Assembly (NCBI GenBank): GCA_002368735.1 | Contig: DFEQ01000006.1 | Coordinates: 1 to 45,637 of the forward strand | Direction: 5' to 3' | Length of the DNA: 45,637 nucleotides | Source of the DNA: Christensenella sp. UBA3798 | GTDB taxonomy: Bacteria; Bacillota; Clostridia; Christensenellales; CAG-1252 | In this document: one piece after another, positions 1 through 45,637 of the stretch | Layout: each line of letters opens with the position of its first letter | Numbering within the stretch: position 1 is the stretch's first letter | Program-made: the position numbers and the translations under genes | The notes under the pieces: generated by a model | The model's database searches: none | Told to the model about the DNA's origin: nothing | What the model saw: only the letters and a program-made list of their open reading frames with translations

Positions 1-37
1 CGTCGCTTCGCTCCTCGCGAATCCCTGAGGGCACACC

Positions 38-72
38 AAAAAACTGCTCGGCAAACACCGAGCAGTTTTTTT
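38..72 (+). terminator. Rho-independent terminator of the upstream transcription unit (looks bidirectional)
   Basis: CTGCTCGG (44-51) pairs with CCGAGCAG (58-65) around the 6-nt loop CAAACA. The stem is followed by T7 (66-72) and preceded by A6 (38-43), which can extend it. Confidence 0.7.
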
Positions 73-99
73 ATCCAAACCGAAGCTAAGCGAGGTTTG

Positions 100-161: not shown

Positions 162-179
162 CTAAGTCGTGTATTAATG

Positions 180-208: not shown

Positions 209-262
209 CGTCCCGCATTTTCTTTCGATGGCTCTTTAATGACATCATTCTCGCGGATATCC

Positions 263-1416: not shown

Positions 1417-4400
1417 GCGCCGAAGTCGTCCACGATCCTCACCGATCCCGATCCGTCGGGAGGGGGAGGCTCCGGCACGTCGGAGACGCGTATAGACGTT
1501 ACGGGAGGTGAGAAGTCGGATTCTTCGGTATCCGAGTTCTTTACATATCTCAAAAAAGCGCTTGCCGTAGACGACGCGAGCGACGCAGTGGCGTTTAAGT
1601 TCGTGACCGAGGACATGACCGTAGTGAAGAGCGAGAAGTCCGTCGATCAGAACGGCAATGAAGTATCCACCCCCAAGACCTTCGATATGTACGCCGAACT
1701 CGCCTGCAAATATGACCGCAGGGACGACTCCAATACCGAATTGCTCTTTGAGCTGCATTCTTCTCTTACGCGCGAGCTCGTGTTTGGCTTCTATTACTAT
1801 ACGGGCGTATTTTACTTGAATATCCCCAACGATGAGGGCGGTGCCGCTACCATCTATATGGACGAGTTCAGCCTGGACGACGTCGTGACCATCCTCGCTA
1901 GCTCGGGCGCCACGGTGTCGGATATCTATAGCGCCGTGATGACCGCCAACGTGCCGATGATCGACGTGAGCGCTATCATCTCGTCTATGCTCAGCGCCGC
2001 GGTCAAGGAGGTCACCAAGACCGAGAAGGATGGCGCCACGCAAATCGTCTTGAAGACCGATTTCAACGCTTCGATCAATGCCTTGCTTGATAAACTCAAA
2101 AGTTTTGACCGAGCCTTGAAGGAGCTCAATATTCGCAGTGCTCTGGAGACCGTGTTCGGCATGTCCTTCACCTCTCTCGTCAATTACAAGTTTGACCAGT
2201 TCACCTGCGACGTGACTTTGAACATCCTGGACGGCAAACTCCTCAGCGTACAGCCCACCCTCGGCTACGGCGGGAAGTTTGCTATGGACCTCTTGATAGA
2301 CAACGTCTACTACGGCGACGACACCAACGCGGTGGGGACCATCGCCTTCCCCGAATTTAACGATTACAGGAAGTTCGGCGTGACCAACCTCGAATTCACC
2401 ATGCACCTCGACCTGGAGAACGCATCGGAAAAGAGCGTTACGATGGATAGCCTGCTCGGCGGCTTCTTCCGCGAGTACTTCGGGCTGACCTCCATGGGCG
2501 CTTTCGGCGAGAGGGTGCTCACTCTCGGCAAGGGCACCATCGGGCTCAACCTCGACGTCAACGCCGAGATCGATTGGAACAAGAACGAAAGGAATTACAT
2601 AGAGATCGAGGTCTTCGAAAGGCTCACTTCGGGCGACAAGCGCCTCGGCACTATCTACTACGTGGGCTCCAAGAGTGCCTTGTACGTGGACTTCTCCGAG
2701 TGCAAACTGCCTAAGTTCGTCTACGAAGGATTGAACCTCGCATCCGTCATCAAACGTTTCGTCGTGGAGACAGTCTCCTCCATGCTCGGCACCGCGGAGG
2801 AAAGCAGCGCCGCGGGCGAAGAGATGCGCGAGGTCATCATCGAGGCGTTTGCTCCGGGCGGCAGTTACCAAGACGCGCTTTCCGCCATCGTGAGAAACGG
2901 CACCTACGAAACAGTCGCCGAAGCAGGCGACGGCGAATACGTCGATCTCACGCTGGACGTCGTCGCTTTGATAAAAAAGCTCGCCAATGCCGTGGCGAAC
3001 AATCTCGAAATGCGCCCCGAGGGCAAGCGTGCGATCGCGCTCACCGTGGATCGTTCGCTCGTTATGGACGTTGTGGGGCACCTTGCCGCGAAGGCAAAGG
3101 AAGGCTTGGATACGGCTGTCAAGAAGCAAACAGAAGCCGCCTCGAACGACGATGAGCTCAAGGAATACGTGTCTACCATCTCCACGCTCGAAGCGGAGAA
3201 ATCTTCGCAAGAAGAAGCGCTCCGAGCCGCTCGCTTGGAGCTGGAAAACGCGAGCAACATGGCGGCGGAGAGAAGGGCGCAGGCGAAGATCGACAACATC
3301 GAAAACGTCCTGCTTCCCAATATCAACATGCAGCTGGAGTATTATCAAAAGCTTTATGACGAGCGCATACAGGCTTTCTCCTCCGACGTGGACGCCGCAC
3401 GCAATAACTTCTATATCTTCGCCTCTCTCTACGACGGGCTAAAGGATAAGTCTTTGACGAGCGGCGACGTCGCTATCCGGAGTATCCGCGTCGAACTGGG
3501 GCTCCTCTCGGTCGGATACGGCATCTACGCCGACGTGGACGTCAAGCTCGCGGAAGACACCCATCTGAAACTGTCGGTGGACCAAGTCTCCATCGGCTAC
3601 GCGCCCGTATTCAACGTGCCCAAGGAGAATTTCGACCCACAAGGCTATTCCACCTTGGAGGAGTTCTCCTCCGTTTCCCTGTCCGCCACCATCGCCCTCG
3701 CGGGTGACAGCGGCTCGCTGAAGGAGCTGAACCTCGGCGACGCGCTCGGCGGCATGATCGGCGAGCTGACCTGCCTCCTCGGCGTAAAGACGGCGAATGA
3801 CGTCGCGCTGTCGGGCGGGATGGATATCAAGGTGGACGCCAACTTGAACTTTGACCCCATCAGCATCTCCGACTATCTGAACGGCGACAACACCAAGCTC
3901 AAACTGAACTCTATCGATCTGGCCGTCAACGTGTACAAGCGTCCCAACGCCACCACCCCCGCCTTGACCGAAGCCAACCGTATGCTCAGCGTGTGGTATT
4001 CGGGCGAGGAGGGCGCTATCTTTGTGGATGCGACGGGCGTATCCATCAGCGATGACGGTGCGACCATCCCCCGCTTTATGTACCGTATGCGCCTCGAAGA
4101 CCTCTTTGCGGGCTCGATCGCCGCGGAGAGCGATATTCCCGCGACCCTTCCCGCCGCCGCTTCGAGCGATTTGTCTATGGAGCAGATCATGGAAGTGGTG
4201 GGCGGAATGTTCGGCGGACTGTACCTCGGCGACGAGATATCGGTCCTGCTTGCGGATAAGCTCATCGCCACCACCCTTTCCATGGTGATGAACGGCAAGA
4301 ATTCGGACAGCGTCATCGACCTCGACTCCTCCAGCAAGGTGTATATCCGCACCGAAGGCGGGCTGGAGATCGGCGCGCATATCGGCTTTGACACCAAGAC

Positions 4401-7400
4401 GTCTGAGGATACCGTCGGATACGTTGACCCCTATATCGAACTGCACGTCGGCGACATCTCCGCCTCGCTCGTCAGGAGGGATATCATTCCCGAAAACGTC
4501 CTCGTGGGCGCCAAGAAGACCTATCCCGACATCACCGAGTTCGACACCGTCTATACGCAGTTTGAGATAGACCTCGGCTACCGCTTTATCAACAACGATT
4601 ACGACTTTACCGACCTCATGGAGGCTTTGTCCGATATGCTCGGCGAGTCTTCTGTCGGCAACCTTTTGGCAAATACCGCGCTGAGCCTCAGCGTCAAAGA
4701 GGAGTTGTTCGGTCATTTCCGCGCGCGTATCAGCGCCAATATGGACTTCTCGGACGGCTTTGAGTTCACCGCGAGGATAGAGCTTTTGAAGGATAACGAC
4801 GTCCTTGCGACCCTCTACTACGAGGGGCTGTACCTCTACGTGGATGCCAGCGGTCTGACCCGCCTTGCTTCGGACGGCGGTCTGAGCGGTCTCAATATTC
4901 CCAAATTCCGCATCCGCGTGTCTAAGCTCGAGTGCGGCTGTACCTGTCCCGACTGCTTGAACGAAGCGTCCTGCGACCACGGCACGAAATGTCTGCCCGG
5001 TTGCGGCTGTGACTGCCACGAAAGCGTCTCCGCTGCGGAGGAGATCTCGGCGGGTAGCTTTATCGGTCTGTTGGATCGCATCGATTTGACAGAGGAAGGC
5101 ATCGCCGTCAAACTTGCGCGCGATAGCTTGTCGAGGGTCTTGACGATCCTCAGCTTTGACGAACTGGGCGAAGCCTTGCCCCATCTGACGCCCTCTTTGA
5201 AGGTGAAGCTCGCGGGCGGCATCGGCATCGGGGCTACCATCGCCTTCGACGACGCGGGTGACAACTATATCGACATCGACATCGGCAAGTTCGGCGTCAA
5301 GTTCGGCAAGGAGAGCCTCGGACTCGTCAAGAGCGAATATCGCGACCTCGACTTTACCATCCTCGATAACGTCTCGGCGGAAGTGTCGGGTCGTATGACC
5401 CTGAATATCGATGCGGGCGCGGCGAATGAAGACGCCGCCGTTGCCGCCGTCGTCAAAGCCCTCGTCAAAGAGGTGGGCTTCGGCGTGCAGGTGGAAAGCG
5501 CCCTCAAGTGGGACCTCTCCTTTGACCTCAAGGCGAACGTCGACCTTTCGCAAGTGGACTTCAACGACGATTCCACCTTTGCCAATATGATCCCGGGTGC
5601 GGAGATATACTTTGCGCTCTACAACAATAACGGCGCGTCGCGAAAGCTGATGCTCCTCATGTATTTTGACGGCAGGACCAAGGACGTGAGCGGCGCTACG
5701 CAGCCCACCGTCTATTTGACCGCTCCCTGGCTCGGCGTGGGCAAGGTCGCTTATAAAGTGGATATCAACGCCCTATCGCAAGACGACGTCTCCGCGGCGG
5801 AGACGGAGGGTGTGGGCGCAGCCGATATCCTCGGCAAGTTCGCCGACCTCATCTTGGACGAAGGGGGCATCGGCGTGGTCTTTACGGGCGAACTGCTCGG
5901 CGAAGTGCTCAACCTCTTGGTGCTTGATGAAGATATCGACTTTGCTTCGATGATAGAGCAGGTAAAGCTCGGCATCGGACTCAACGACGGACTCAGCATC
6001 AACCTCGACGCCTTCCTGACCGGCGCCAAACTCTCCGCCGGCATCACGGGGCTCGGCTTCAATATCGGCGAGAGTATCGACCTCGAAGACCTCGTCTTTG
6101 ACACCGACGACCGCGAGACCGAATACGCGACCGTCGCGTCGGGTACCGACATCAAATTCAACAGTATTTCGGCGGGTATCACCGCTACCTTTGATATCAA
6201 GAGCGCAAGCTTTGAGAACTACGACGCCTCCGAGACCATGAAGAGCATCGTGGACCTCTTTGAACTGGAGGAGGAGGTCAGTTCGCTCGTAGAACAGCTC
6301 TCTCTGTACCTTTCTGCCGACCTGCCCGCGCGCGCTAACGACGCGGCTATGCTCTCGGCGGGCAAACTCATCGTGCGCTTTGACTTCAACTTCTTCGATA
6401 CTTTGGAGTTCGTTTTGCACATCACGACGGGGGATGGTGACGAAGTCGCCACCGTCATGTATCACGGCATAAACGACCTCATCAACGGCGAGGAAGACGT
6501 TCTCTATCTCGAATTGCCCATCATCGGCATCCCCAAGACCAAGGTGGTGGGAACGAAGATCTCCTCTTACGTGGCGAGCTTGACCGAGACCGCCGTCGCT
6601 TCTCAGGAGGAACTCACGAAACTCCCGTGCGGTTGCAGTTGCGACGCGTGTTTGGCGGCGGGTACTTGCGGCAAGAGCGCCGGCAGCCTGACCTGCGCCA
6701 TCTCCTGCGATTGCACCTGCCATCTGCCCGACCTCGATTGCGGCTGTATGAACCCCGCCTGTAAGATCGCGGGCAGCTGCTATCACACCGACGAGACTCT
6801 CGGGGAAGAGGTGCCCAACGAAGGTTGCACCTGTCCCATACATAACGGTGTCACCATCATCGACCGCTTGAACGAGATCGTCGATCACGTGGTGCTGGAC
6901 GGCTCCACGGGTCTCATCGGCGTGGTGACTAAGGGCAACGCCCTCGCGACCATTGCTTCCATGCTCTCGTTGAAAATAGTCCTGCCCGAGCTGGTGATGA
7001 GCGCCAAAGTCAACGTGCGCGATCTCGGCGCGGTGGTGGGCATCACGGGCTTCGAGGACGAAGAGGTCACCTTTGACCTCGCGGTGGACGTGGGCGACCT
7101 CTTGATAGAATTCAAGAAGCGCGACCTCATCTCGGGGACGGAGGCGTACCAAGATTGGCGCACCTTGCAGTTCGGCTTTATGCTCGACGCGGACGTCGCC
7201 TTCAAGATGGACGGCACCTACGCGGAGTATCTGACCGACTATATCTCGGAGAACGTTGCGGGCGAATCCATGAAGGTCGTCGTGGGCAACAATACCACCG
7301 AGGACAAGGTGGAAGTCGCGCTCGGATTGGAAGTTGCGGCAAACGTCGCTTTGGACTACGACGATACCGTCAAGAACTTTGTGCATCCCGGGGTGGAACT

Positions 7401-10400
7401 GTGGCTCTCCTTCTATGCCAAGACGGGGGAGGACGAGCTGTACGACAGGACGTCCAGCCTGATCTCCATCTACTATAATTCGAGCGAAGTGACCGACGGC
7501 GCCTCTCACGAAGTGCTCTATTTTGCGGGCGCGGCGTACGGCGCGGAAAGTGCGGTCAAGATAACCGATATCGGCGTGTACGACCTCGTGATGGAGCTCT
7601 TGCTCCCGATGATACCGAGGGCGGGCATCGTTTCCGCGGCGGAAGCGGACGACGCGGAGGCGCAAGCGGTCGGCGGATTGCTCTCGGGCATCCTCGGACT
7701 TACCGTCACGCGCGAAGACGGGCTCTTGATCTCGGCGGACGGCGGCGCTTTGAAACTGGCGCTTTCCTTGCTGAATAAGGAGCTTGGGGATATCTTCCCC
7801 GCGACCGAAGGCGTGCGCGTGGCGTTTGGCGAGGAGGGTCTCAGCGCAAAACTCGTATTCAACGAAGCGTCTATGCTCACCGTAGAGGTCGCCGACGCGG
7901 ATATCTTCTTCAACAAGTCCTTTGTCGAGTTTGAGCCGATGAGGGATAAGATAGCGGGAGAAAACGGCATCACCGTGGGCGCTGCTCCGATGTCTGCCGA
8001 TGACGCATTCCACCTCTCCGGCAAGTTCAGCGTGGAGGCGGAAACGGGCGTGACCGTGGATGAGAGCGGCAACCCCATCGACGAATTCTTCGGCTCTACC
8101 GAAGGCGGCTATTTGGGCGCGTTGAAGTTCCTCTTGCGCTCCGACGCCGAGAATAAAGTCAACTATACCGTGGAAGCGGACGTTTCGGTCTACGGACTGA
8201 AACTCGACGAAATGAAGCTGAATGCCTTTGACCTTCCGTCGGTCATGGCGCTCGTGGGCAAGGCGCTCGCCGGCGTAAAGGCGGAGGCGACCGTCGTGGT
8301 CAGGGATAACAACGCGGACGACGAAGTCATCTTCGCCATCTACTACACCTTTGATGAGATCGACAGTATGTACGTCGTCGTGCCCGCCTTCGATCTGCGC
8401 CTCAGGGTGGAGGAGGTTCTCCCGCTGAAGTCTCTGCTTGCAAGCATCGTGAGCGACAGGGTGGATTCGGGCGAGACCGCCGCTTCCGAGGCGGTGGAAA
8501 GCGCCGCTGTCGGCGGCTTCCAAGCCAAAGATATATTTAAGCTGGTGGACAAGATAGCGCTCTCCAACGAGGCGCTCACCATCGACCTCTCCGAGCAGAT
8601 ACTCTCAAGGTTGCTCCTGATGGAAGGCATCGAGATAACCCTTCCCGAAGTGAGGACCACCCTCACCCTCGGTCAACTTGTCGCCGCGACGGGCGGGGTG
8701 GATCAGGGCTTGTCCGTCAAGGTGATATCCTCCTTGATACCGCAGTTCAATGCGGAGATTCGCTTGGGCGACTTTGACATCACGCTTGAGAAGGGCTCTT
8801 TGGACCTCTTGGCGCCGCACGCCGCGGTCTTCGGCAGGATGGATACCTACTCCACCCTCGACTCGTTGCAGGCGAAAGTGGAGTTCGAAGCGGACCTGTA
8901 TTACGGCTTCGGCGAGAACCAGACCAACTCCGACGGCAACGCGTGGGCGTTTGAGAAGCTCCTCGAAGACATCGACCTCAACTTGAATATCGGCATCATC
9001 GACCAGCTGAAAGGACACTACAAACTCACCGTCAGCGCGACCGCGAACGTGGCGGAAGGGGCGGACAGCCTGTACGGCTTGGAGATATATATCGTGCTCT
9101 ACTCCGTCAGCAAGGACGGCGAGGATAACGACGTTTACGCCAAGCAATTCAGCGTCTATTACGGCAAGGGCGTGCTCGGCTTGAACTTCTACGACCTCCT
9201 CGGCGTAGAGCCCTTCGAGCTTGAGCTTGACCTCGGCTCCATGATATCGGGCGCCGGATCTTCGGCGGAGCAAGAGGACGCGGGCGAAGAGGCGCAAAGC
9301 GTCACCAAGAAGCTCGAGGGCTTTATCTCCGAGCTTTCGGGCATCATCAAACTCTACGTTAAAGAGAAGTCCGCCGTCTTGGAGCTCAGCGGCAACGTTT
9401 TGCACACCGCGCTCGTCGCTCTTGGTTACGACAACTATTTCCCCATCACGGCAGAGGGGGTCACGAACCTCAATACCGCCGCGATGAACGGGCTTACGGA
9501 GGGCGACTACACCGTCGTCTTGACCTACGATGGTCTGACGAGCGAGTCCGAGTCCTTTACCTATCATCACGCCTATCGTCGCGACCTTTACGACCTCAGG
9601 GCGCTCAATCTGACGGGCGGTGACGTCTATGCCATCGGCTATCAGGGCGAGGGCGTCAGCGGCGTATTCTACAGCGAGGCGAAGTGGAGCGACCTCTTCG
9701 ACCTCGATCTGAAGGCGCAGACCATCACCTGGGTCTCTGCGGATAAGCACAGCGAGCTCTTTGAGAGCTTGCCGCTCGGCGAATACGAGATAACCATCAT
9801 CAAGACGGGCGGCAGGGCAAGCGCCGGCTTCAAGATGGAGAAGAGGCTCTCTTCCTATACCTCCAAGGACGGCTTGCACCTGACGGGACGCACAGTTTCC
9901 ATGATAGAGATAAAGAGGGACGGCGTCACCCTCCATACCCTTGTCCCCACCGAGGTCGAGCTCACGCCGGGCAAGGAGCTTATCGGCGATTACTTTGCCA
10001 TCAATGCTTACGGCGGTCTCCTTGATCTGGAGCTCGGCACGGAGGGCATCCTTGCCAAGGTACGCCTCAAGGACGACACCTATCTCAACCTTTCCATCAC
10101 CGACCTCGATATCGATATGTCGGGCGGCACCGTGGATAGGATAGATAAGAACGGCGAGGCAGAGCAGTATACCTCCAATATCCGCTCGCTCTACTTCGAC
10201 TTCTCGGTAGACCTCTCGGTGAATACGAGCAAGGGGTATAAGCTGGATGTCGACGAATCCATCGGCAACCTCCTCGACAACGTGCTCGGCGGCATCTTTG
10301 AGGGACGCGATATCAACTTCTATTCCGAAAAAGACTCCGAACTCACCTACACCCTCGACGTGCAGGCAAACGTCAAGCTTGCGGGCAAAGCCATCGACCT

Positions 10401-35600: not shown

Positions 35601-38600
35601 TCAGACCGATTCCACGAGCTCGAACGTGGGCGCGATGGTCGGATCTCTGACCACCAGCAAACCCACCTTTAACAATTCTTGGGCGGTCATGTCCTACGAC
35701 GAATACGCCAAGGAGGACGCTTCCTTACGTCGTCGTCCCATCGCTACGGAAGACGTGAACGTGGAGACGGGCATCAACGTGGTCTACGTGCAAAAGACCG
35801 TTGCCATCGCCGAGGTGGATATCTCCTCCTCGACCCCCGTCAGCTTCACCCTCGCTTCGCAGGAAGGGATGGTTTTCTCGGGGTGGTACGACTATACGTC
35901 GGGCGAAAGGTCGGTCATCACCGAGGGGCTCGTGGGCAATCGGTTCACGCCGCAAAATCAGGTGTTAAGCAATAGGATATTCGTTGCGGAACTGTTGAAC
36001 CTGCAATTCTTCACCGCAGAGGACCTCAATGTCCTATCCGCTTCCACGGGCGAGGGCAGAGGTTACCAAGGGGTGACCTTCACGCTCGGCACCAATATCG
36101 CGGTGAGCGGGTTTACCCCCATCGGTACGACGGACAGACCCTTCCTGGGCTCCTTGGACGGCAACGGACTCACCATCACCGTGGAGTCCAACCGCGCGGG
36201 CTTGGACTACGTGGGGCTCTTCGGTTGCGTAGGCTCCACCGGCACCATCAAAAATCTCACCGTGCGCGTTACGGGGGCGCTGGGCAACGCTTCCACCCTC
36301 TACGGCGGCGCGGTCGCCGCGGTCAACTACGGCGTCATCGGTCAGGATACTTCGACGGGTAAGGTCATCGCCGAGATCGACGGTTGGATCAGCGCAAACA
36401 CCGTGGGTGGCTTGGTGGGCGTCAACCACCGCATCGTCAAGAACGCGGAGGTGTATTTCCGCTACGCCACCGAGTATGATTACGGCAAGATAGAGGCGAC
36501 CACTGCGGGCTCCGGTAAGGTCTACGCGGGCGGCGCCATCGGATATAACGAGTACGAGAACGAAGCGGTCATCGCCAAGAATATCATCGTCTACTATGAC
36601 AATACCGACGTCAATTCCCCCATCATCAGCACAAAGGCGAATTACGCCGCGGGCGGTGTATTGGGCGAGAACGGCAACGGTGCGGCGGCGTACAGCTTGG
36701 TATCCGTCTTTAACCACGCCACCATCTTCGGCGGCGACTTCACGGGGAGCAACGGCGAGCAGTCGCAGTATCGCGGCTTGATCGTGGGTCACAACGCCTC
36801 CAAGAATAATACCGATTCCTTGTGGGCGCTGTGCTTGTCCAAGAGCAAGACCTCGGACGTCTATTACGACCCCGCACTCGGTGCGCCCCTCGCGGTATAT
36901 CAGGGGAGTGATGAGAACGTTACCACCGGTCAAGCGGTGCTCATGAGCGGCGAAGACCACGGAAGCGCCAATATCCTCATCAAGTACGGCTGGGGCGACG
37001 TGACCGTCACGATAAACGGCGCGGAGAGCGTCAAGGGCGGTCAAATCACCTTCCTTGCTTCCAAACTTCCCGTCCAGGATAAGAATGGAGACGACATCCC
37101 CGAAGTGAAGAGGGTGGCGTTCTACGACTACGTGGCTTCCTTCGAGCACGGCACCAGGGTGCCCGTCTCCGAGGGCAATACGGGCTTTACCTTCTCCCCG
37201 ACGGTGGGCGGCGCAAACGGCGCGGGCTTGTCGGGCAAGGTATATTATGCGGGCTTCTGCAATACGACCATCGCTTCACAGGAGGATTATATTGCGGTAG
37301 CTGAAAATATCGCGGGCGATTACAGATTGTACGTGGAGTACAATATCAACAACAATTTCACCATCGACGAGAATTCGACGGCAGCCATCGGCATGGCGGA
37401 GAAGCCCTTCGTCGGCTGTATCAACGGCAACGCTTATACCGTAACGATGAGCTCCTCGTCCACCCTGCATCCCTTCGTGGGCGTGCTTGGCGCGGAAGGG
37501 GATGCGCGGCATTCCTCCCGCATCAAGAACCTCTTTATCGACGTGCGTTCTGGCAATTCTTCCGTGACTACGGGCGACGTGGCAAGGGGCATATTGACCG
37601 ACGTCAACTACGGCACGATATCGGGCGTGAACATCGCGCTGCACGGCTACTTGAAGACGGGCGGCTCGGCAGGCGCCGTCGCGGGTATCAACTACGGCAA
37701 GATAGAGTCCGCCGTCGTCACCGTCGAATACGCCAAGGCATTCGGTAGGAACGGATTCGGCGCCATCGTGGGTAAGAACGCGGGCGGTATCGCGGGTGAG
37801 AACTACGGCGAGATAGGCGGCTCTATGGCAAACTCCATCGAAGTGACCGTCTCCAGAGAAGGCAGCTACTTCGGCGTGCTCTATGCTTCCGAGAGCGTGG
37901 GCGCCATTGCGGGCGTCAATAAGACGGGCGGCGTCGTCCGCTCGGCGTTCGTCTCGGTTTCGGGTACCATCGCGGGCAAATACGCTTCCGCACTCGTCGG
38001 CACCAATGAAGGGCGCATCGAGAGCGCCTTCGTGAACGTCGAAGCGAAGGCAGCCTACGCGGGCAGCGAAGCCTTCGGCGCCATCGCGGGCGTCAACAGA
38101 GGGCTCGTTGGTTACGAGGAAGTCAATTACGATAGTTACCAAAAGGACGTCTTGGCATTTATCTACGCCGCACCCACCGAGTGGAGGACAAATACCAACG
38201 TGGATCTGACCATCACCGTGGGCAGCGAGTCCGAGACAGTCACCGTGTGCACCATTCCCGCGATGGCTACCGCCGCGATGGGCGGCGTCATCGGTATCAA
38301 CGAGGTCGATGGCGTCGTCAACGCCGTCATAGCGGAGACGCACGCCCTTATTGCCCTCGCCACCTTCGACGCGGAGGAAGAGGTCGTGAGCTATGTGGGC
38401 GGCATCGTCGGTAAGAACTATGGCACGCTGTCTTGCTCTACCTTGACCACGGCGGCGGGCTCAGCCATCCATGCGGATATCGCGGGCGGCGTGGCGGCTC
38501 TCAACGAGGGCTATATCGACCGCGTGATAGTTACTCTCCGCGGCGCGGTGGGCAAGGAAAGCACCATCTATGCGGGCGGCGTCGTCGGCAAGAATATCGG

Positions 38601-41600
38601 GGCTGTCTCTAATACCGCAGTTGCCCTCTACGAGGACGTGTACGGCACGTATGTCGGTCTCGCGGCAGGCGATACCACTGCTTCTTGCGCCACCAATACC
38701 TGGGTGCAGATATGCAATAGCTCCCTCAGCAAGGTGGTGGGTACGAACGTCGAGGAGACGGGATTCAACGTCATCCGAGTGCTCAACGAAACGCTTTTGA
38801 GCGTTAGTTTGAACGAGAGAATGGGGCGCTTCAGCTTTACCTCGTCGATATCGGGTGTCAAAAACTGGTATACCGACATCTCGGCTTGGACGGAGAATGA
38901 AGGCTACCTCAAGACCATGACCAATCGCTCGGTGTACGTGTCGGACGGCATGGAAACCAACGTGACCTATTACGTCTGCTACGACGACCTTCTCATCACC
39001 GATTACACCTCCTTCAACGCCCTCGCGACCAAGATAAACAGCCATTCCTACTATAACAACGTCCTCTTCCGTCTGGACGGCGATATCGTGGTGGACGCGG
39101 GCAAAGTCTTGCGCCCCATCGGCACGGAGGATCATCCCTTCAACGCCATCTTTGACGGCGCTCTTTATACCATAACGATGGAGAAGGACTCCTCTATCAG
39201 CGGCCAGGAGTACACGGGTCTCTTCGGCTACACCGCCCCCAACAGCGTGATAAAGAGTTTCGTCTTTATCGTGGAGGAGGGCGCTTCGATAGGTAGCGTA
39301 AACAGCAACGTCATCGGCTCTCTCGTGGGCTATAACCAAGGCGTCATCGAGAATGTCTTCGTCAACCTTTCCATCAATCTGACCTATAAGTCGGATAAGA
39401 GGAGCGCGGGCGAGATCATCGGCGAGCAGGCGTCGGATGCGCCGAACGTGCGGAACGTGTGGATCAGCGTGCTCAATGGCAAGGACCGCGTGGTGGGCAA
39501 TATGACCACCTCTCAATTCGGCGTCAACCAGCTCGGTGTGCTCGGCAACGGTATGACCACCGCGGAGATATATACGGGCGAAGGCAAACTCAGCGACCTC
39601 CGCAAGAGATATCTCGCGGGAGAGTCGCCCGAGCTTTCCGTGCGCTATAAAGCCGTCAAGGGCTTTAGCTCTTTCGATAACGGTTGGTATAAGGATATCA
39701 CCAAGGAGGCGGGCTTCAATTCGGCAAACCTCACGGGGATAGGCTCCTTCGTCGGCAATAGCGACAACGACGATATCCGCATGGTCACCGATCCCGATGC
39801 GGTAAACTGCAGCGTTACTTTGTCCTTCATCAAGCTGGGTATCAAGACCGCCGCCGACTTTGCCGAGTTCGCCGAGAATATCAAGAATTACGGCGACCAA
39901 GGCGCGGTGTTTAGGCTGGAGGCAGATATCATCGTCAGTTATCCCTCCGTCATCGCGGTAGGTACTCCCGACCGTCCCTTCACGGGTACCTTTGACGGAC
40001 AGGGTCATACCATCACCGTCACGGGCAAAGCCATCAAGAGGGCGTACGCCGGTGTGTTCGGCTACGTCGGGACGGGCGGCACCATCCGCAACCTCCTCAT
40101 CGAAACGGGCGAGAACGTGCGCTTCGGTGACAACGACGCCCTGTATTCGGGCGTGGCGGTCGCGCTCCTTTACGGCAGCATCAAGAACGTGGTCGTGCGC
40201 GTGCACGCCGATACCGTTGTCTACACCACGCAGGGCACCCCCTCATCGGGCGGCATCGTAGGCAGGGCGGGCAAGCTCGCCGAGGACGGTTCGGTCTTCT
40301 ACGACTACACCATCGACAACTGCTGGCTCATTTTGGAGGAGAATGCCACCGTTACCGAGCCGATGGGTCGGCAGGAGGGCGAGGCGTATCCCGCATTCTA
40401 CGAGCTGAACGGCGTGGGCAGAAAGATGCGCATGGTGGGCAGTATATACCTTGAAGACGACCCCCTGGAGACCAATCCCTTCAATAAGGGTGCGCTCCGC
40501 GTGTCCATCACGGCGGACGGCGCCATCCTCTTCGATACGACGGAGGTCGACAGCGCCTTCTACGGCTTTATCGACAATACGACGACCGAGGAGGATATGA
40601 TCAAGCCCATCTCGGACGTTGCTACCAGCCTCTATCGTTGGACGGTGCGCGAGGGAGGCGTATACGGCAGTACTGCGTCGCCCAAGGTGGCAAGCAACGA
40701 TATGCTGTGCGTCATCATCAATAAATATATTTCCACCGTGGACGACTTCTTGATGATATCGGAGAACGTGCGTCTCGGCAGGAACTATCGCGGTATCGAG
40801 TATCAGCTCGCTAACGACCTTATCATCACGGCTGCGGACCTTGAAAACGGCGTCTATCAGCCCATCGGCGGCGAAGTGAAAGTGCAGTCGGGCGCAGGCT
40901 TTGACAGCTATATCGAGCGCAACTTTATCGGCAGCTTCAGCGGCAATAAGCACACCATTACCCTCGCCGCGGACGTCGTCATCGACGCGCGTTACGCAGG
41001 GCTCTTCGGCAGAGTGGGCGAAGGCGCCAGGATACGCGACCTTATCATCAAGGCGTACTGCCCCATCGGCAGAGACAGCGCGGATAATACCACGCGCACC
41101 ATCTATGCGGGCGTACTTGCGGGATATGCCTTCGGCGGCTCGTACAATAATATCGCCATCGTACTGGACACCAACGCCTCTCTCTTCGGTTCGGTTGGGA
41201 CGGGACGCGCCTTCGGCTATCTCGACGTGGAAGGTGACGTGGCGAAGAATTCGTGGGTCATCAGCTACAACAGCAAGGCGAACTACGAGCTGGGCGAGAG
41301 CGAACTCTCCTACAATAACGGCGGGGAGGGCATCGACCAGGGCGGCTTCAACAGCTTGATGGTCATCGCCGCGGGCGTTGTGAACGTACGCTTCAATCAG
41401 AACGACAGCAACTTTAACTTCACCTATTCCGTGCCCAATACATCTGAGAATTCGCAGGAGGTAGTCGCGCCCTACTGGTATGACAGATATAGGAATTCCG
41501 AGTCGAATAAAGACGACTATTTCCACAGCCGTACCGATAAGACGGGCGATTGGGATGATACCTTCAACGCAATGGTCAACGACACGGAGGTTTACGGCTA

Positions 41601-44600
41601 TTATCCCGACGGCAACGAGAAGCGCCGCTTGTATAACGTCAGCTTCCTCAACAGCCGCATCGAAAGCGCCGACGACCTAATGAAGTACGCCGCCAACGTC
41701 AACGCGGGCTACGACTTCTACATGTTGACCTTTACCTTGGAGAATGATATCGCCATCGATAACGGCTTTAAGGCGATAGGTACCGCCCTGAACGGCATGA
41801 ACGGCACCTTCGACGGCAATAAGCACACCATCACCCTTCCCAAGGATATCTCGGTGGAAGGGGAATACGCGGGCATCTTCGGATACGTGGCGGCGGACGG
41901 CGCTATCGTCGACCTTCGCATCGTCGTCGAGGGGACCCTCGGCAAGAGCGACTATACGCAGGACGATATAGACGCCTTAAAGGTAAAGAATACGCGCTAC
42001 GCGGGCGCTATCGCCTATAATAACGGCGCCCTCTCCAACGTCATCGTGATATCCAAGGGGGCGCGCCTCAACGCCTTGACCACCGCGAGCGTGCAGGGGG
42101 TCAAGGGGCTTGCCATCGGCTATGACGCCACCAACCTCCTCGAGAACGTCTGGGCGCTCGTGGACGCCTCTTCCTACGTCGACGCCATCGGCGTCTGCGC
42201 CGTGGGTGATACCCGCGTCAACGTGATGACCGTCATCGGTATCGGCGTCATCGACGCGAACTTCGCTTCCGATTCCTATAAAGTGAAGTTCACCAACGAA
42301 CTGCTCCATTACGATTCGGAGGACGCGGGCGTCCATATCCCCGTCATGGGCTGGTACAAGTCCTTTGAGAAAAATCAGCAGATATCCAAAGCGATGCTTT
42401 CGTCGGGCGACGAAGAAAAGTCGGGCGACCTGTCCAACGGGGAAGAAGGCTACCTCCTCGCCCCCATCGACTATACGGGTGTTCATTACGAGGTAGCGGT
42501 CATCAAGACGACCCTCACCCAAGTGGCGGACCTCATGGCGATAGCCGAGGACGTCAACGTGGGCGGATATACCTTTGAAAACATCACCTTTAACCTCGGC
42601 GCGACCATCACGCTCTCCTCCGAGTCCTACTTTATGCCCATCGGCAATGCGGAGCATCGCTTCAAGGGCACCTTCAGCGGCAAGGCGGAGGATAGTTATC
42701 ATACCATCCGCATATCCGATACTTGCGTAAGTGAGTTTGTCTCGCAGGGCATCTTCGGCGTTAGCGCGGGCACCGTCACCGACCTCGGCGTAGAGGTGTA
42801 CGGCACGGTGGGCAGAGCTTCGGGCTCTGTGGATAATATCTACGGCGCCGTCGTGAACGTAAACTACGGCACCGTCAAGCGCAGCTATGTGGACGTCAAG
42901 GCGGGCGGCATCGTCACGGGGTATACGGTAGGCGGCATCGTCGGCGCGAACCACGGCACGGTATCCGACTGTCTGGCATTCGTGCGTGAAGGCGGCACGG
43001 TAAGAGCCACCACCAAGCTCAGAAACGTGGTCAACGCGGGCGCTATGGTGGGTATCAACTACGGCACCGTGGAAGGCGCTACCGACTTTACCTATTGGGG
43101 TAAGGATGGTCGCGACCTCTTGCCCAAGGACGACGGGCGTATCGCCAAGGCGGGAAACGGCGCTGAAGCCAACGTCTTTATCTACGGCACGGTATCCGCG
43201 CGTTCGGCGGCTGAGGTATCCGCTCCCACCAATGCGGGCGGTGCGGTAGGCTACCACAGCGAAGGATACATGAATTACCTCATCGTATATCTCGCAGACC
43301 AAGGCGAGGTCACGTCGGAGGCTACGGGCGCAGGCTCCACCCGCGCGGGCGGCTTCGTCGGCTATGCCAAGGCGGCGATGAACCATAGCGTCACCTTCCT
43401 CTTCGGGTCTGTCGTGGCGGAGGAATACCTCGGCGGCACGGCAGGCTACTTGGACGGCGTCATCGCGATGAACGTCTGGCAGGTCACCTTGAACCGCGAG
43501 GTAGAGGGCGCGGGCGAGGGCGCAAAGACCGTCAACTATCTCAATATCAAGGGCAACGGCAAGGTCATGGCGGGTATAGACCTCTTCACCAAGAGGATCA
43601 TCTTTACCAACGTGACGGATGACGAGGGCACCGACCTCGACTATTGGTATACCGCCGCGTCGGTCCAGGTGGACGACAAGACGGGTAACGTGGGCGAGAA
43701 CGGCAATACCTTCCTGCCCCTCAATACCATCCAGAACAAGCACGTGATGGTCATCTTCGTCAATACGCGCATCTATTCCGTCGCCGACCTCAACGATATG
43801 GCTTCCTCCGTCAGCGGCGGCTTGTCGGGTAGCGCCATCGTCTTTACACTCATGAACGACGTCACGGTGGAGGCGGGCGAACTTACCGCCCTCATCGGTA
43901 CGGAGGAATATCCCTTCAATAACGTCTTTGACGGCGGCGGCTACACGATAACCTTGAAGGGCGGCTCGCTTGTCGGCACGGACTACACGGCGCTCTTCGG
44001 CTATAGCGGAGCGACTGCCGTTATCCGCGACCTCACCGTTGAGGCGGAGGCCGGTGATTACGGCTCTGTATCCTCGCAGAAGACCGCCATCCTCACGGCA
44101 GTGAACGAAGGCACCGTCTCGGGCGTGAACGTTACCCTTAAGCAAGGCGCAGCGCTCCTCGGACAGACGGTGGGCGCCGTGACAGCCACCAACTTCGGCG
44201 TCGTCAAGGATATCGTCCTCACTGTAGAGGGTAGCGTGACGGCAAGCGCTGAGAATACCGCCATCGCGGGCGGCCTCGTCGGCGCCAACGACGGCACGAT
44301 AGAAAGAGTATCTGCAAGCGTCGGCGCTACCTCTATGGTCAAGGCGATGGGCGCAGCCACTTCCTATGCGGGCGTCATCGTGGGCGAGAACTATAAGACA
44401 ATCTCGGTCGTGGACGTCCTCTTCCGCGGCGAACTCCTTGCGAGCGGCAGTATGGTGTCCTACTCGGGCACCCTCGCGGGCATCAACCTCGGCAACGTCT
44501 ATCGCGTCTATGCCGACGTCACGGGGGCGGTATTCGGCGCCAACGATAAGGATAGAAGCGGCGGCTTGATAGGTAATAACGTCAACGCGCTTACCACTTC

Positions 44601-45637
44601 GCTCGTCAAGGTGGTGGGCGAGGTCTTCGGCGGCACGGACAGCGCCATCGGCTACACCAAGGCGAAGGATCCCACAAAAGTGCACAACGTGTGGGTGTAT
44701 TCCGATAAGTCAGAGAACGTATCTTCCGCCGCGTGTGTGAACAGCATGACCTTCGACTCCGAATGGGCTATCTCCTGCCCGACGGCGGCAGAGGTCACGG
44801 CGGGTAAGATATCCTTCAGTCGCGATATCACCTCTCTTGACGACTCGATAGCCCTCTTTGCGGGCGTCACGGCAGATGGCAGTTACGACGTGGGCAGCGG
44901 CGCGGCGATGGATAACGTCGTGTATGGTACGGTCGGCGACAACGCCTATATCACCTATGTCACTTACGACGTCGTGGCGGAAAACGCCGTCTCGCGCATG
45001 ATCTCGGACGTTCGCGTGCGTTTGGTGACGAGGTCGGCTATCGGTAGCGGCAGCGAGCTGTATGCCTTTGCTCTTGCCTTGAACAGCGGGGTGTATCACC
45101 TTGCGGACGCCACCTTTACCTTGACCGCGGACATCACCCTCCCCGAGAGGGCGTTCCCCGCGATGCTGATCCCCGCATCCCTCACTTTTGACGGCGGACA
45201 TCACGTCGTCACGGTGGGAGGCGCCACCTTGACGGATGGCTTTGTAGCAGAAAACAACGGCATTATCCAAAAGCTGGGTCTCCGCCTCACCAAAGCGGAA
45301 ACGGCGGCATACCTTATAAAACTCAATAACGGCAACGTCAATAACGCGGCTATCTATTTAGAGAAGGGCGCAAGCCTCGCGGGCGAATTATTCACCCTCA
45401 CGAATAACGGCGTTTCCGATAACCTGTGGGTCGTGGCAAGGGAGCAGGTGACGACCACCTATCCCACCATCCGCATCAACGGCGTAGGCACCCTCACGCA
45501 GGGCGGCGACAACGGCTTGACCTTCAGCGCCGACCCCGCCGACGATATCATCTTTATCGGTTACACGAATAAGGGGGTGGGCGGCAGGAGCATCTTCTCA
45601 GCCGATGCGCTCTTTGATACGGCGGGCGGCTACGTTA
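32533..45637 (+). CDS. Second giant surface protein, more than 4,368 aa, 3'-partial: signal anchor plus GLUG-motif beta-helix modules
   Basis: The frame of ATG 32533 stays open to the window edge. My hand translations at 33001, 36001, 39001, 42001 and 45001 are all in this frame and all give the same repeat type. The ORF track lists no + strand ORF in this frame, which is expected if no stop codon is reached. The N-terminus is MTVTQRRTKWKAGLIIALAAIILLTLLAVSLSIATDH. GLUG-like rungs include YVGGIVGKNYGTLS, VGGLVGVNHRIVKN, AGGLVGANDGTIER and VGGIVGANHGTVSD. Confidence 0.9.
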   Translation, partial: MTVTQRRTKWKAGLIIALAAIILLTLLAVSLSIATDHSATAEEEKITFGDRVAKGQRYELVSGSVSNLEDYAPGEDGLISTAGQLYYIFFSENATGSYTLTTNFKINYLGWAISGPTLRGNLNGAGYEIWNAAVPANNESVPTNTKDYVGGLAGEISKDKKVENLYYYFTGSITAKKVAAASYLAVGGMVGVNNGKINSCYINVAGDIETEADTAEMTSYVGGVVGYMAAGQIYQCPYVVSSASVNAYTDKETGSSTAKHNIVYAGGIVGKLDGGNVSKCTIKAAGATMAADNTDKWEEENIVGTILDILGNITGYKIELKTAYNDAQHVHPAGVVFGGLGNGGEISYNVVEASGGAISYGTGGASNVGSIAGGFIGEIKGAGTVQSNSVKLKCSLSAFIVQDFSLTDTVASWFAERDLDIYVGGVVGRYNGGSPNISNNYFAVETDDDIIESAYGTKGDLGYECNTGLICGNSDLMGKLGANNWLARNLSESDTGRIAGNKTPSSNTNLHHLVIFGDGEVKVKGTMTDSTMNVEVKPICSPFYAWMTADELLTGSISSESKKKTKTLTQSESNVLFAVFIDTEIESSGELTQLARDINQIKLKVYQNIGSGVNDSDGNLLMSFSGVSTPTLSWLNVTLKKDILVRDGTPVIEDFYGTFNGNGHTISFAAGSSISHEFEKDPDKKDEYSKEDDPNADITDFKEYTTGLFGVIKSGARVTDLKIVFGGAIDESGGITYRALKDASDKVKAKRKHKIEGDSREADANSVFNNSFAMADFSFPAYSTFDEAYFYGLKGDDYDAGRAYNPGYIEVVPYTVDIVVETFYVGILAGKNEGTIQNVEVEATKSAFVTCAADNSVFGTLCGLNVGQINNVKVTLTGKATISGRTSAVAGGMIGVSQAVSGAQFNGLNAYVSGEIKLESLYNFHAVNITMYKHAKLKDGSSEDDGYGVIGWDSTNDSQDKAVDIFEVKELMGTSSYRLYGNDHTVVEQSIGTLVGRYDANQATFNNVAAVSGSKGTFNTTIYQTDSTSSNVGAMVGSLTTSKPTFNNSWAVMSYDEYAKEDASLRRRPIATEDVNVETGINVVYVQKTVAIAEVDISSSTPVSFTLASQEGMVFSGWYDYTSGERSVITEGLVGNRFTPQNQVLSNRIFVAELLNLQFFTAEDLNVLSASTGEGRGYQGVTFTLGTNIAVSGFTPIGTTDRPFLGSLDGNGLTITVESNRAGLDYVGLFGCVGSTGTIKNLTVRVTGALGNASTLYGGAVAAVNYGVIGQDTSTGKVIAEIDGWISANTVGGLVGVNHRIVKNAEVYFRYATEYDYGKIEATTAGSGKVYAGGAIGYNEYENEAVIAKNIIVYYDNTDVNSPIISTKANYAAGGVLGENGNGAAAYSLVSVFNHATIFGGDFTGSNGEQSQYRGLIVGHNASKNNTDSLWALCLSKSKTSDVYYDPALGAPLAVYQGSDENVTTGQAVLMSGEDHGSANILIKYGWGDVTVTINGAESVKGGQITFLASKLPVQDKNGDDIPEVKRVAFYDYVASFEHGTRVPVSEGNTGFTFSPTVGGANGAGLSGKVYYAGFCNTTIASQEDYIAVAENIAGDYRLYVEYNINNNFTIDENSTAAIGMAEKPFVGCINGNAYTVTMSSSSTLHPFVGVLGAEGDARHSSRIKNLFIDVRSGNSSVTTGDVARGILTDVNYGTISGVNIALHGYLKTGGSAGAVAGINYGKIESAVVTVEYAKAFGRNGFGAIVGKNAGGIAGENYGEIGGSMANSIEVTVSREGSYFGVLYASESVGAIAGVNKTGGVVRSAFVSVSGTIAGKYASALVGTNEGRIESAFVNVEAKAAYAGSEAFGAIAGVNRGLVGYEEVNYDSYQKDVLAFIYAAPTEWRTNTNVDLTITVGSESETVTVCTIPAMATAAMGGVIGINEVDGVVNAVIAETHALIALATFDAEEEVVSYVGGIVGKNYGTLSCSTLTTAAGSAIHADIAGGVAALNEGYIDRVIVTLRGAVGKESTIYAGGVVGKNIGAVSNTAVALYEDVYGTYVGLAAGDTTASCATNTWVQICNSSLSKVVGTNVEETGFNVIRVLNETLLSVSLNERMGRFSFTSSISGVKNWYTDISAWTENEGYLKTMTNRSVYVSDGMETNVTYYVCYDDLLITDYTSFNALATKINSHSYYNNVLFRLDGDIVVDAGKVLRPIGTEDHPFNAIFDGALYTITMEKDSSISGQEYTGLFGYTAPNSVIKSFVFIVEEGASIGSVNSNVIGSLVGYNQGVIENVFVNLSINLTYKSDKRSAGEIIGEQASDAPNVRNVWISVLNGKDRVVGNMTTSQFGVNQLGVLGNGMTTAEIYTGEGKLSDLRKRYLAGESPELSVRYKAVKGFSSFDNGWYKDITKEAGFNSANLTGIGSFVGNSDNDDIRMVTDPDAVNCSVTLSFIKLGIKTAADFAEFAENIKNYGDQGAVFRLEADIIVSYPSVIAVGTPDRPFTGTFDGQGHTITVTGKAIKRAYAGVFGYVGTGGTIRNLLIETGENVRFGDNDALYSGVAVALLYGSIKNVVVRVHADTVVYTTQGTPSSGGIVGRAGKLAEDGSVFYDYTIDNCWLILEENATVTEPMGRQEGEAYPAFYELNGVGRKMRMVGSIYLEDDPLETNPFNKGALRVSITADGAILFDTTEVDSAFYGFIDNTTTEEDMIKPISDVATSLYRWTVREGGVYGSTASPKVASNDMLCVIINKYISTVDDFLMISENVRLGRNYRGIEYQLANDLIITAADLENGVYQPIGGEVKVQSGAGFDSYIERNFIGSFSGNKHTITLAADVVIDARYAGLFGRVGEGARIRDLIIKAYCPIGRDSADNTTRTIYAGVLAGYAFGGSYNNIAIVLDTNASLFGSVGTGRAFGYLDVEGDVAKNSWVISYNSKANYELGESELSYNNGGEGIDQGGFNSLMVIAAGVVNVRFNQNDSNFNFTYSVPNTSENSQEVVAPYWYDRYRNSESNKDDYFHSRTDKTGDWDDTFNAMVNDTEVYGYYPDGNEKRRLYNVSFLNSRIESADDLMKYAANVNAGYDFYMLTFTLENDIAIDNGFKAIGTALNGMNGTFDGNKHTITLPKDISVEGEYAGIFGYVAADGAIVDLRIVVEGTLGKSDYTQDDIDALKVKNTRYAGAIAYNNGALSNVIVISKGARLNALTTASVQGVKGLAIGYDATNLLENVWALVDASSYVDAIGVCAVGDTRVNVMTVIGIGVIDANFASDSYKVKFTNELLHYDSEDAGVHIPVMGWYKSFEKNQQISKAMLSSGDEEKSGDLSNGEEGYLLAPIDYTGVHYEVAVIKTTLTQVADLMAIAEDVNVGGYTFENITFNLGATITLSSESYFMPIGNAEHRFKGTFSGKAEDSYHTIRISDTCVSEFVSQGIFGVSAGTVTDLGVEVYGTVGRASGSVDNIYGAVVNVNYGTVKRSYVDVKAGGIVTGYTVGGIVGANHGTVSDCLAFVREGGTVRATTKLRNVVNAGAMVGINYGTVEGATDFTYWGKDGRDLLPKDDGRIAKAGNGAEANVFIYGTVSARSAAEVSAPTNAGGAVGYHSEGYMNYLIVYLADQGEVTSEATGAGSTRAGGFVGYAKAAMNHSVTFLFGSVVAEEYLGGTAGYLDGVIAMNVWQVTLNREVEGAGEGAKTVNYLNIKGNGKVMAGIDLFTKRIIFTNVTDDEGTDLDYWYTAASVQVDDKTGNVGENGNTFLPLNTIQNKHVMVIFVNTRIYSVADLNDMASSVSGGLSGSAIVFTLMNDVTVEAGELTALIGTEEYPFNNVFDGGGYTITLKGGSLVGTDYTALFGYSGATAVIRDLTVEAEAGDYGSVSSQKTAILTAVNEGTVSGVNVTLKQGAALLGQTVGAVTATNFGVVKDIVLTVEGSVTASAENTAIAGGLVGANDGTIERVSASVGATSMVKAMGAATSYAGVIVGENYKTISVVDVLFRGELLASGSMVSYSGTLAGINLGNVYRVYADVTGAVFGANDKDRSGGLIGNNVNALTTSLVKVVGEVFGGTDSAIGYTKAKDPTKVHNVWVYSDKSENVSSAACVNSMTFDSEWAISCPTAAEVTAGKISFSRDITSLDDSIALFAGVTADGSYDVGSGAAMDNVVYGTVGDNAYITYVTYDVVAENAVSRMISDVRVRLVTRSAIGSGSELYAFALALNSGVYHLADATFTLTADITLPERAFPAMLIPASLTFDGGHHVVTVGGATLTDGFVAENNGIIQKLGLRLTKAETAAYLIKLNNGNVNNAAIYLEKGASLAGELFTLTNNGVSDNLWVVAREQVTTTYPTIRINGVGTLTQGGDNGLTFSADPADDIIFIGYTNKGVGGRSIFSADALFDTAGGYV
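34495..45216 (+). repeat. At least 10 module-head cassettes ([IV]..a.dL..[fl]a..vn......f.L..DI......PIG....F.G.FDG.GHTI....Y.GLFG.....I..L.V)
   Basis: FDGNGHTI-type cores are at nt 34495, 36139, 37405, 39136, 39976, 40921, 41797, 42661, 43912 and 45181, giving spacings of 280-577 aa. An example is IKTAADFAEFAENIKNYGDQGAVFRLEADIIVSYPSVIAVGTPDRPFTGTFDGQGHTITVTGKAIKRAYAGVFGYVGTGGTIRNLLIE. Confidence 0.8.

Follow-up and report, generated by a model that had tools for sequence, protein, structure and literature searches.

A candidate surface-structure locus of an uncultured Christensenellales-like bacterium encodes a 10,372-residue predicted lipoprotein built from an undescribed module

Giant repetitive surface proteins are already known as a kind. 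Ebh of Staphylococcus aureus, Embp of Staphylococcus epidermidis and the SasG/Aap rods are built from modules of FIVAR/GA, G5-E or similar known types and are held by a C-terminal transmembrane or LPXTG-sortase anchor. Giants of more than 10,000 amino acids (aa), presumed to bind surfaces, have also been described from Clostridia in gut metagenomes, with RCC1, Listeria-Bacteroides, YG, dockerin and leucine-rich repeats; the module family that we describe below is not mentioned among them (West-Roberts et al. preprint, 10.1101/2023.11.21.568195). Here we analyse a stretch of 45,637 nt from Christensenella sp. UBA3798 (assembly GCA_002368735.1, contig DFEQ01000006.1, positions 1 to 45,637), hereafter the window, whose three genes we call ORF1, ORF2 and ORF3. 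The best explanation of its sequence is a clade-specific, three-gene surface-structure locus of an uncultured Christensenellales-like Clostridia bacterium of the rumen or gut. What is new is the building block of the largest protein, ORF2, and a reversed anchoring topology.

The window has a GC content of about 57%, and all three genes lie on the + strand:

299-1141, + strand: ORF1, predicted lipoprotein of 280 aa
1339-32457, + strand: ORF2, giant predicted lipoprotein of 10,372 aa, one uninterrupted open reading frame of 31,119 nt
32533 to beyond 45637, + strand: ORF3, more than 4,368 aa, with no stop inside the window

Together they take up 45,067 of the 45,637 bases (98.75%), and no further credible gene was found in the window. 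These values agree with the original prediction, made from the nucleotide letters and their translations, which had assigned 98-99% of the window to three proteins and given the two giants sizes of 10,372 and more than 4,368 aa.

Two thirds of ORF2 consist of a rod of tandem modules. We located the modules with an iterated hidden Markov model (HMM) seeded by an alignment from four species, and also used profile-profile comparison:

2131-23175 (aa 265-7279), + strand: module rod, 19 HMM-found alpha/beta copies of about 236-255 aa
aa 265-493, 681-942, 964-1198, 1251-1496, 1507-1759, 1856-2102 and 2125-2385, + strand: modules 1-7
aa 2409-2654, 2850-3087, 3126-3369, 3427-3677, 3699-3914 and 3950-4189, + strand: modules 8-13
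aa 4888-5048, 5227-5465, 5616-5882, 6210-6451, 6658-6913 and 7097-7279, + strand: modules 14-19

All 19 copies were detected at E-values of 1e-16 to 1e-60, so the module rod proposed from the letters is real. The copies are divergent (about 15-25% pairwise identity): self-BLAST of ORF2 cut into chunks found weak internal similarity of about 25%, and self-BLAST of the undivided protein returned the identity match only. Beta-strands alternating with short helices are common to every copy, and each module closes on a strand pair, '..hYY.G....LYhD.P.hG...h' ('..YY.G...LYVD.P.LG'), followed by an acidic linker of the 'SAAE' type. The module had been called unfamiliar in the original prediction, and it stayed so: it matched nothing in Pfam-A or NCBIfam, phmmer and the module profile found nothing among all PDB sequences, and a structure model of the module had no significant Foldseek match in the PDB. 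Pfam, NCBIfam and PDB sequence searches with ORF2 aa 1-8000 were likewise empty. Our literature searches found no description of the module family.

The linker motif [SV]-[SA]-A-E occurs at module ends at aa 1241, 1495, 2109, 3094, 3373, 3684, 5889 and 6920 (e.g. nt 5059-5070), and distant family members have ATAD, STAE or NAE in its place. Between modules 1 and 2, ORF2 aa 590-690 (nt 3106-3408) form a predicted long helical, coiled-coil-like acidic segment (KEYVSTISTLEAEKSSQEEALRAARLELENA...); nowhere do the orthologues differ more than here (34-50% identity).

The module profile retrieved 114 protein clusters at E <= 1e-3, of which 41 at E <= 1e-30, from 1.84 billion cluster representatives (clusters at 50% identity, searched with no word index). 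Most matches are proteins of 5,500-7,900 aa with 12-16 module stretches, and in every full-length member a signal peptide leads up to a lipobox Cys, located between positions 19 and 28. All named members are annotated as 'hypothetical protein' bar one (CarboxypepD_reg), and they come from metagenome-assembled genomes (MAGs) of Eubacteriales, Clostridia or Bacillota. We propose to define the family by a lipobox, then at least nine tandem modules of about 250 aa, then C-terminal repeats of the GGYQ/Big_4 type; ORF2 has the lipobox, 19 modules and 15-17 repeats, and the relatives P0010-P0033 have 9-13 modules by the module HMM and 1-6 repeats. The GGYQ/Big_4-type repeats are common to all distant relatives, whose C-terminal halves contain beta-sandwiches only (CarboxypepD_reg, Big_4 and SdrD_B-like); no enzyme domain was found in these halves. 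Judged by its sequence, ORF2 belongs to an undescribed giant-lipoprotein family of Clostridia, of which no larger member was seen here.

The N-terminal signals point to tethering at the N-terminus for all three proteins. We took as the signature of a lipoprotein a positive n-region, a hydrophobic h-region and a lipobox [LVI][ASTVI][GAS]C with an invariant Cys. The N-terminus of ORF1, MKKTICTLLILLLVMGACVGAFAC, has a signal peptide and the lipobox VGAFAC, with Cys24 at nt 368-370, and that of ORF2, MTKNLHTKILLILLLCFVVVLVAFAC, ends in the same AFAC. Both (...GAFAC and ...VAFAC) show this signature, with Phe as an atypical -2 residue. Across 12 orthologues of ORF2, neither the n-region MTKNLHTK nor the lipobox Cys varies, and the lipobox is present in all orthologues of ORF1. 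ORF3 starts with MTVTQRRTKWK followed by a hydrophobic stretch of 23 residues, which is predicted to act as a signal anchor or, if cleaved (possibly at ATA|E near aa 41), as a long Sec signal peptide. The two segments of the giant proteins are:

1339-1416, + strand: ORF2 signal peptide and lipobox, MTKNLHTK...LVAFAC, Cys26
32566-32634, + strand: ORF3 hydrophobic segment, aa 12-34, the sole one in ORF3, conserved in the orthologue P0007

In none of the three proteins was a hydrophobic segment found other than a single one at the N-terminus, which bears out the earlier claim of an N-terminal export signal in all three and AFAC in two. The C-terminus of ORF2 (...NYVLVAKYQSE) contains no LPXTG motif, sorting signal, transmembrane or other hydrophobic segment, so ORF2 does not belong with the LPXTG-sortase substrates; the C-terminus of ORF3 lies outside the window. 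From these signals we infer that all three products are exported and tethered N-terminally, with Sec export and lipidation by Lgt/Lsp at Cys26 for ORF2.

ORF2 and its neighbours are conserved in a narrow clade. Homologue searches of ORF2 were run with pieces of 1,200 aa. When the N-terminal 1,200 aa were searched against 5.8 billion clustered proteins, only six homologues came up, all partial and all from Clostridia MAGs. Among GTDB species representatives we found 10 loci, 43-64% identical to ORF2, in 'Clostridia bacterium' MAGs (goat, buffalo and yak rumen) and in 'Christensenella sp.' UBA1252, UBA3770 and UBA4247. Contigs on which the locus lies include DBVY01000036.1 (UBA1252; 86,992 bp), DGWX01000062.1 (UBA4247; 58,982 bp) and CAMOTC010000004.1 (40,062 bp). 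Synteny, which the original prediction had proposed as a check, is conserved in this clade: each orthologous locus long enough to show it (L001, L002, L004 and L007) has an ORF1 orthologue as the gene immediately 5' of the giant one, and in one other contig, L014, an ORF3 orthologue (56-60% identity) follows the C-terminus of ORF2.

The same loci bear on whether the giant gene was correctly assembled. ORF2 aa 1-4,500 are collinear, with few gaps, with L004, L007 and L013 (40-78% identity); P0009 is collinear to aa 4,432, P0048 over aa 6,123-7,076, and L014 over about aa 9,018-10,372, the last ~1,350 aa, at 57% identity. This cross-check covered ORF2 except for aa 4,433-6,122 and 7,077-9,017. 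The window contains no long, near-identical DNA repeats, the longest repeat being 101 nt at 74% identity. Mis-assembly, which the original prediction had named as a possible refutation of itself, is unlikely because of this collinearity with independent assemblies and the lack of long near-identical repeats. Several orthologues are split: L001 into 1,728 + 3,340 aa (at 7180), L014 into 1,544 + 3,791 aa (8736-8758), and L016 (3198). These splits are probably frameshift errors, and as a result the family is larger than database protein counts suggest, with few full lengths on record.

Outside this clade, the giant gene keeps different company. In four genomes of distant relatives it stands alone among housekeeping genes; we looked for an ORF1-like or ORF3-like partner beside it and found none, so the three-gene arrangement is clade-specific rather than family-defining. 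L017 and L019 (P0013 and P0021) have PhosphMutase and HGSNAT_cat upstream and Mem_trans, DUF1858, Gate and MetRS downstream, a shared and conserved housekeeping neighbourhood, which suggests that the gene was inherited vertically and is not part of a mobile island. Directly downstream of the giant, members of the P0011/P0012 subfamily encode a conserved lipoprotein of ~510 aa (L015 33758-35308, L018 32235-33755); the two copies are 36% identical and unrelated to ORF1. Small lipoproteins may be recurrent companions of the giants.

Beyond the rod itself, ORF2 contains Cys-rich inserts, a hub, a tract of immunoglobulin (Ig)-like repeats and a C-terminal region:

13894-14691 (aa 4186-4451), + strand: largest Cys-rich knot array, 61 Cys
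aa 1193-1232, 1758-1823, 3386-3400 and 4511-4555, + strand: smaller arrays of Cys-rich units
aa 4658-4686, 5049-5195, 6464-6628 and 9080-9098, + strand: further smaller arrays of Cys-rich units
4906-5058, 6601-6843, 11446-11613, 13876-15498, 16456-16938, 20701-21243 and 28516-28668, + strand: stretches in which Cys-rich units are inserted at module junctions
23575-25476 (aa 7413-8046), + strand: hub between the rod and the Ig tract, conserved in the closer relatives P0080, P0059, P0117 and P0069
25435-31065 (aa 8033-9909), + strand: Ig-like repeat tract, 15-17 or more repeats of ~90 aa
31066-32454, + strand: C-terminal ~460 aa, further beta-rich domains, 57% identical in the L014 orthologue

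None of the inserts, the hub or the C-terminal ~460 aa matched a Pfam family. The Cys-rich unit, CGCxxPxCxxxGxCY...CxxxxCxCxC, is about 35 aa long and is inserted at many module junctions; of the 205 Cys of ORF2, 61 fall in aa 4186-4451. Distant family members lack these units and hold at most 25 Cys each, which makes the Cys-knots clade-specific. For a strict anaerobe, metal binding is more likely than disulfides. CxxC...CxxC inserts resembling zinc ribbons occur in some distant relatives (P0013, P0017, P0022 and P0045). The Ig-like repeats follow the consensus FDPY...W...GG...GN..GGYQ. Within aa 8050-9900, Pfam Big_4 (PF07532) scored 89.4, 50.6, 45.9 and 23.3 bits against a cut-off of 22.1 bits, which confirmed the Ig repeats of the original prediction. 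The C-terminal ~460 aa are the presumed distal tip.

ORF3 is built differently. Chunked self-BLAST and a motif search divided most of it into large repeats:

34360-45636, + strand: at least nine ORF3 supermodules of ~290-570 aa, 21-38% pairwise identity

Each supermodule opens with 'F.L..DI.V....PIG....PF.G.FDGNGHTIT...GLFG' and continues with GLUG-like G-G-x-V-G-x-N turns. The earlier description of ORF3 as a GLUG beta-helix stands in part: we counted about 23 GLUG-like motifs of the form G-G-x-[VIA]-G-x-N, but all Pfam Glug (PF07581) scores (12.8, 13.7 and 12.1 bits, best E-value 0.0013) lie below the cut-off of 20.5 bits. Nothing in ORF3 scored above threshold in Pfam or NCBIfam, and the supermodule profile found nothing in the PDB. 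Homologues of ORF3 are very rare: the orthologue P0007, the orthologous fragment P0144, and P0145, a protein with GLUG (PF07581) and GDSL-lipase domains that shares one short segment with ORF3. The L014 orthologue is at least 5,335 aa long and still open at its contig edge. An apparent stop of ORF3 in L016, a contig of 5.9 kb, is probably a frameshift at the contig end, as L014 reads on. Scans of JGI metagenomes for the tail of ORF3 found nothing.

ORF1 matched no known family in Pfam, NCBIfam or PDB sequence searches. The ORF-finding tool placed its start at a GTG at 146, upstream of the likely ATG. In the relatives, a tRNA cluster (Lys, Leu, Gly, Lys, Gln) lies just upstream of the ORF1 orthologue, which is why their contigs mostly break there:

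L002 7365-7974, L001 123-198, L004 7-82 and L007 205-278: tRNA cluster positions

Further upstream, L002 encodes SpoIIID and aminoacyl-tRNA synthetases. Positions 1-60 of the window contain ...CACCA and, behind it, a terminator-like hairpin, which may mark the 3' end of a tRNA, but ARAGORN predicted no tRNA anywhere in the window, and an Rfam scan of it was empty as well.

Candidate transcription signals surround ORF1 and precede ORF2:

263-291, + strand: promoter-like site of ORF1, TTGATA-17-TATAAT, TG-extended and near-consensus
1154-1196, + strand: hairpin resembling an intrinsic terminator, 14 pairs plus a T-run, 3' of ORF1
1249-1277, + strand: promoter-like site of ORF2, TTGACT-17-TAGAAT

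The -10 element of ORF1 ends 7 nt 5' of the ATG, and a Shine-Dalgarno sequence was not found there; given this short distance and the missing Shine-Dalgarno sequence, the ORF1 mRNA may be leaderless. ORF2 has a ribosome-binding site, GGAGG, at ~1330. ORF2 and ORF3 are probably co-transcribed, because their spacer of 75 nt shows no promoter and no convincing terminator. On the minus strand, open reading frames of up to 1,629 aa within 1375-44685 run antisense to both giant genes. They are long because the codon bias of ORF2 (third-position GC content, GC3, of 0.79) leaves few TTA, CTA or TCA codons, 17 in 10,373, and we rejected them as genes on the grounds that they are shadows of this bias.

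Taken together, these features fit a fibre-forming surface structure, and in our judgement it probably attaches the cell to plant particles, to host glycans or to partner microbes, or makes cells flocculate with each other. ORF2 would leave the cytoplasm through Sec and be processed by Lgt/Lsp to carry diacylglycerol at Cys26, which would tether its N-terminus to the outer face of the cytoplasmic membrane; the lipid tether is proposed because the lipobox is invariant across the family. Its ~19 tandem alpha/beta modules would then make up an extended, highly acidic stalk that crosses the wall and projects past it; in this clade the Cys-rich, probably metal-binding, knots would brace it at module junctions. 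The hub and the 15-17 or more Big_4-type Ig repeats would lengthen the fibre and present the C-terminal ~460 residues as its distal, ligand-contacting end. If, going by typical domain sizes, a module spans about 4-5 nm and an Ig domain ~4 nm, ORF2 could reach roughly 150 nm. ORF3, probably co-transcribed, would form a second fibre of GLUG-like, probably beta-helical supermodules held by its N-terminal segment. ORF1, a small, conserved predicted lipoprotein with its own candidate promoter and terminator, is likely a membrane-proximal partner or assembly factor. In agreement with the original prediction, we found no enzyme, transporter or regulator domain in ORF1-ORF3 with Pfam or NCBIfam within the window; the only known domains were Big_4 beta-sandwiches.

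Several points weigh against a surface fibre for attachment. The organism is uncultured, and the proposal is drawn entirely from sequence architecture. No ligand-binding or adhesin tip domain was recognised in ORF2 or ORF3, and an N-terminal lipid as the sole anchor of a wall-crossing fibre is unusual for Gram-positive adhesins. The GLUG scores of ORF3 are below threshold, and its C-terminus and the genes downstream, beyond the window, could hold an enzyme or toxin. The stalk role of the modules is itself an assumption: the AlphaFold2 model of a single module had no significant Foldseek match, the model of two modules is weak (pLDDT 62.6) and does not fix the geometry between modules, and its LolA-like matches, weak as they are, would fit a role in lipid handling.

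That last point leads to a very improbable alternative in which a chain of about 19 LolA-like cavity modules passes lipids, lipoproteins or other hydrophobic cargo from the membrane to the outside or an outer layer, with a function analogous to that of the bridges known from diderms and eukaryotes (AsmA/TamB/YhdP or VPS13-type). Its most specific form, a LolA-like lipid bridge across a Christensenellales-type wall that would be the Gram-positive counterpart of AsmA/TamB/VPS13 with a different fold, we consider very improbable too. The single-module model (aa 1236-1500; input alignment of 30 rows, paralogues and orthologues) reached a pLDDT of 74.8 and a pTM of 0.66, with ~11-12 strands and 3-4 short helices. 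A module of ~11 strands and 3 short helices has the count of LolA, whose structure comprises 11 strands and 3 helices. Against the PDB this model gave no match at E <= 0.001 (best E 0.17, best TM-score 0.31, Osh6), and none at that level against BFVD, a library of viral structures; its best match by 'prob' was the lipid-binding barrel Osh6. The LolA family heads the Foldseek list of the di-module model (E 1.8e-3 to 7e-2), with 9tp6 (E 1.8e-3, prob 0.89), 2w7q (E 2.6e-3, prob 0.97), 9azz, 4mxt, 3bk5 and RseB (2p4b), and the N-terminus of ORF2 is predicted to be membrane-embedded. However, none of these LolA matches has E <= 0.001, their TM-scores are 0.25-0.38 and their rmsd values exceed 9.7 Å, and LolA is absent from the top 50 matches of the better, single-module model. 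We took a TM-score above 0.5 or a significant Foldseek E-value as the mark of a LolA-like fold, and found neither (best E 1.8e-3, from the pLDDT 62.6 model only). In sequence, aligning the module profile to E. coli LolA with hhalign yielded a prob of 0.1, a weak test in that the template was a single sequence. AsmA/TamB/YhdP, VPS13 and Lpt structures were absent among the Foldseek matches, and Pfam and NCBIfam found no DUF490, AsmA or Chorein_N domain. In addition, ~2,300 aa of Ig repeats after the rod would make no sense in a conduit, and relatives lie in sporulating Firmicutes contexts (SpoIIID), where a monoderm is expected. The LolA-likeness is suggestive, and we treat it as an open lead and not as a finding.

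A surface location could also serve a structure that does not adhere, such as a layer, sheath or spacer that is S-layer-like, organises a capsule or spaces cells in chains and flocs. The extreme acidity of both giants (net charge -702 for ORF2 and -177 for ORF3) would suit such a scaffold, as would the lack of a recognised tip or lectin domain and a module order that is strictly collinear between species and not shuffled; the single giant gene of distant relatives, in conserved housekeeping neighbourhoods, suggests a constitutive envelope role. Yet SLH, CWB2 and other wall-binding modules were not found in Pfam or NCBIfam, tandem Ig stalks and GLUG-type repeats are typical of adhesins, and a single copy per genome was seen of genes so large as to be costly for a bulk layer protein; we regard a scaffold as unlikely. 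Delivery of an effector, in which ORF3, or ORF2 with ORF3, would present a toxin or enzyme encoded beyond the window end in the manner of GLUG-containing IgA1 proteases or polymorphic-toxin fibres, is suggested by an ORF3 that runs past the window end (the orthologue, too, has no end after 5,335 aa) and by the GLUG and GDSL-lipase domains of P0145, the sole non-orthologous match of the ORF3 tail. In our view it is very unlikely. The stretch of more than 4,368 aa at hand shows no catalytic domain, nor does a further ~510 aa of L014 (by BLAST comparison only), and the C-terminus of ORF2 is complete and non-enzymatic. That an assembly artefact or decaying pseudogene has been taken for one ORF is hardly credible: the gene is very long and repeat-rich, and its orthologues are frameshift-split in L001, L014 and L016, but the 31,119-nt ORF is uninterrupted with a coding bias of GC3 0.79, is collinear with L004, L007, L013, P0009, P0048 and L014 over the compared stretches, and contains no long near-identical DNA repeats.

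Read as a surface-fibre locus, the window makes ORF2, which would occupy ~1-2% of a small genome, a prime candidate for attachment to particles or partners. Interest in Christensenellales-like bacteria comes from host health and from syntrophic flocculation. The family to which ORF2 belongs, lipoproteins of 5,500-10,400 aa from uncultured rumen and gut Clostridia, was previously unannotated, nearly all of its members being labelled 'hypothetical'. The window yields three candidate new domain families, namely the module, the Cys-knot inserts and ORF1, and it serves as an example of giant genes hidden by MAG fragmentation, as most orthologues are split or truncated.

Among described systems, Ebh, Embp and SasG/Aap resemble ORF2 in overall plan: they too are megadalton, Sec-exported, highly repetitive rods of small tandem domains with no enzyme, presumed to reach past the wall. 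Where those rods are anchored C-terminally, ORF2 has an N-terminal lipobox, and its stalk module, unlike theirs, belongs to no known family. ORF3 recalls the GLUG proteins (PF07581; the streptococcal IgA1 metalloprotease family and putative adhesins) in its G-G-x-V-G-x-N-x-G-x-I turns and in its 'FDGNGHTI...GLFG' module starts, which are typical of GLUG-bearing repeats; it differs in its sub-threshold scores, in showing no peptidase or other catalytic domain, and in its size, with at least nine supermodules and an orthologue of more than 5,300 aa. The module shares ~11 antiparallel strands and 3 short helices with the LolA/LolB/RseB superfamily, at matches that are not significant; known members of that superfamily are single-domain carriers of ~200 aa, whereas ORF2 is a 19-mer array. 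Finally, the Big_4 stalks of Firmicutes have the same repeat type as ORF2 aa 8033-9909, but in ORF2 these repeats account for the distal third, and the rest of the lipoprotein, its proximal two-thirds, consists of a new module type.

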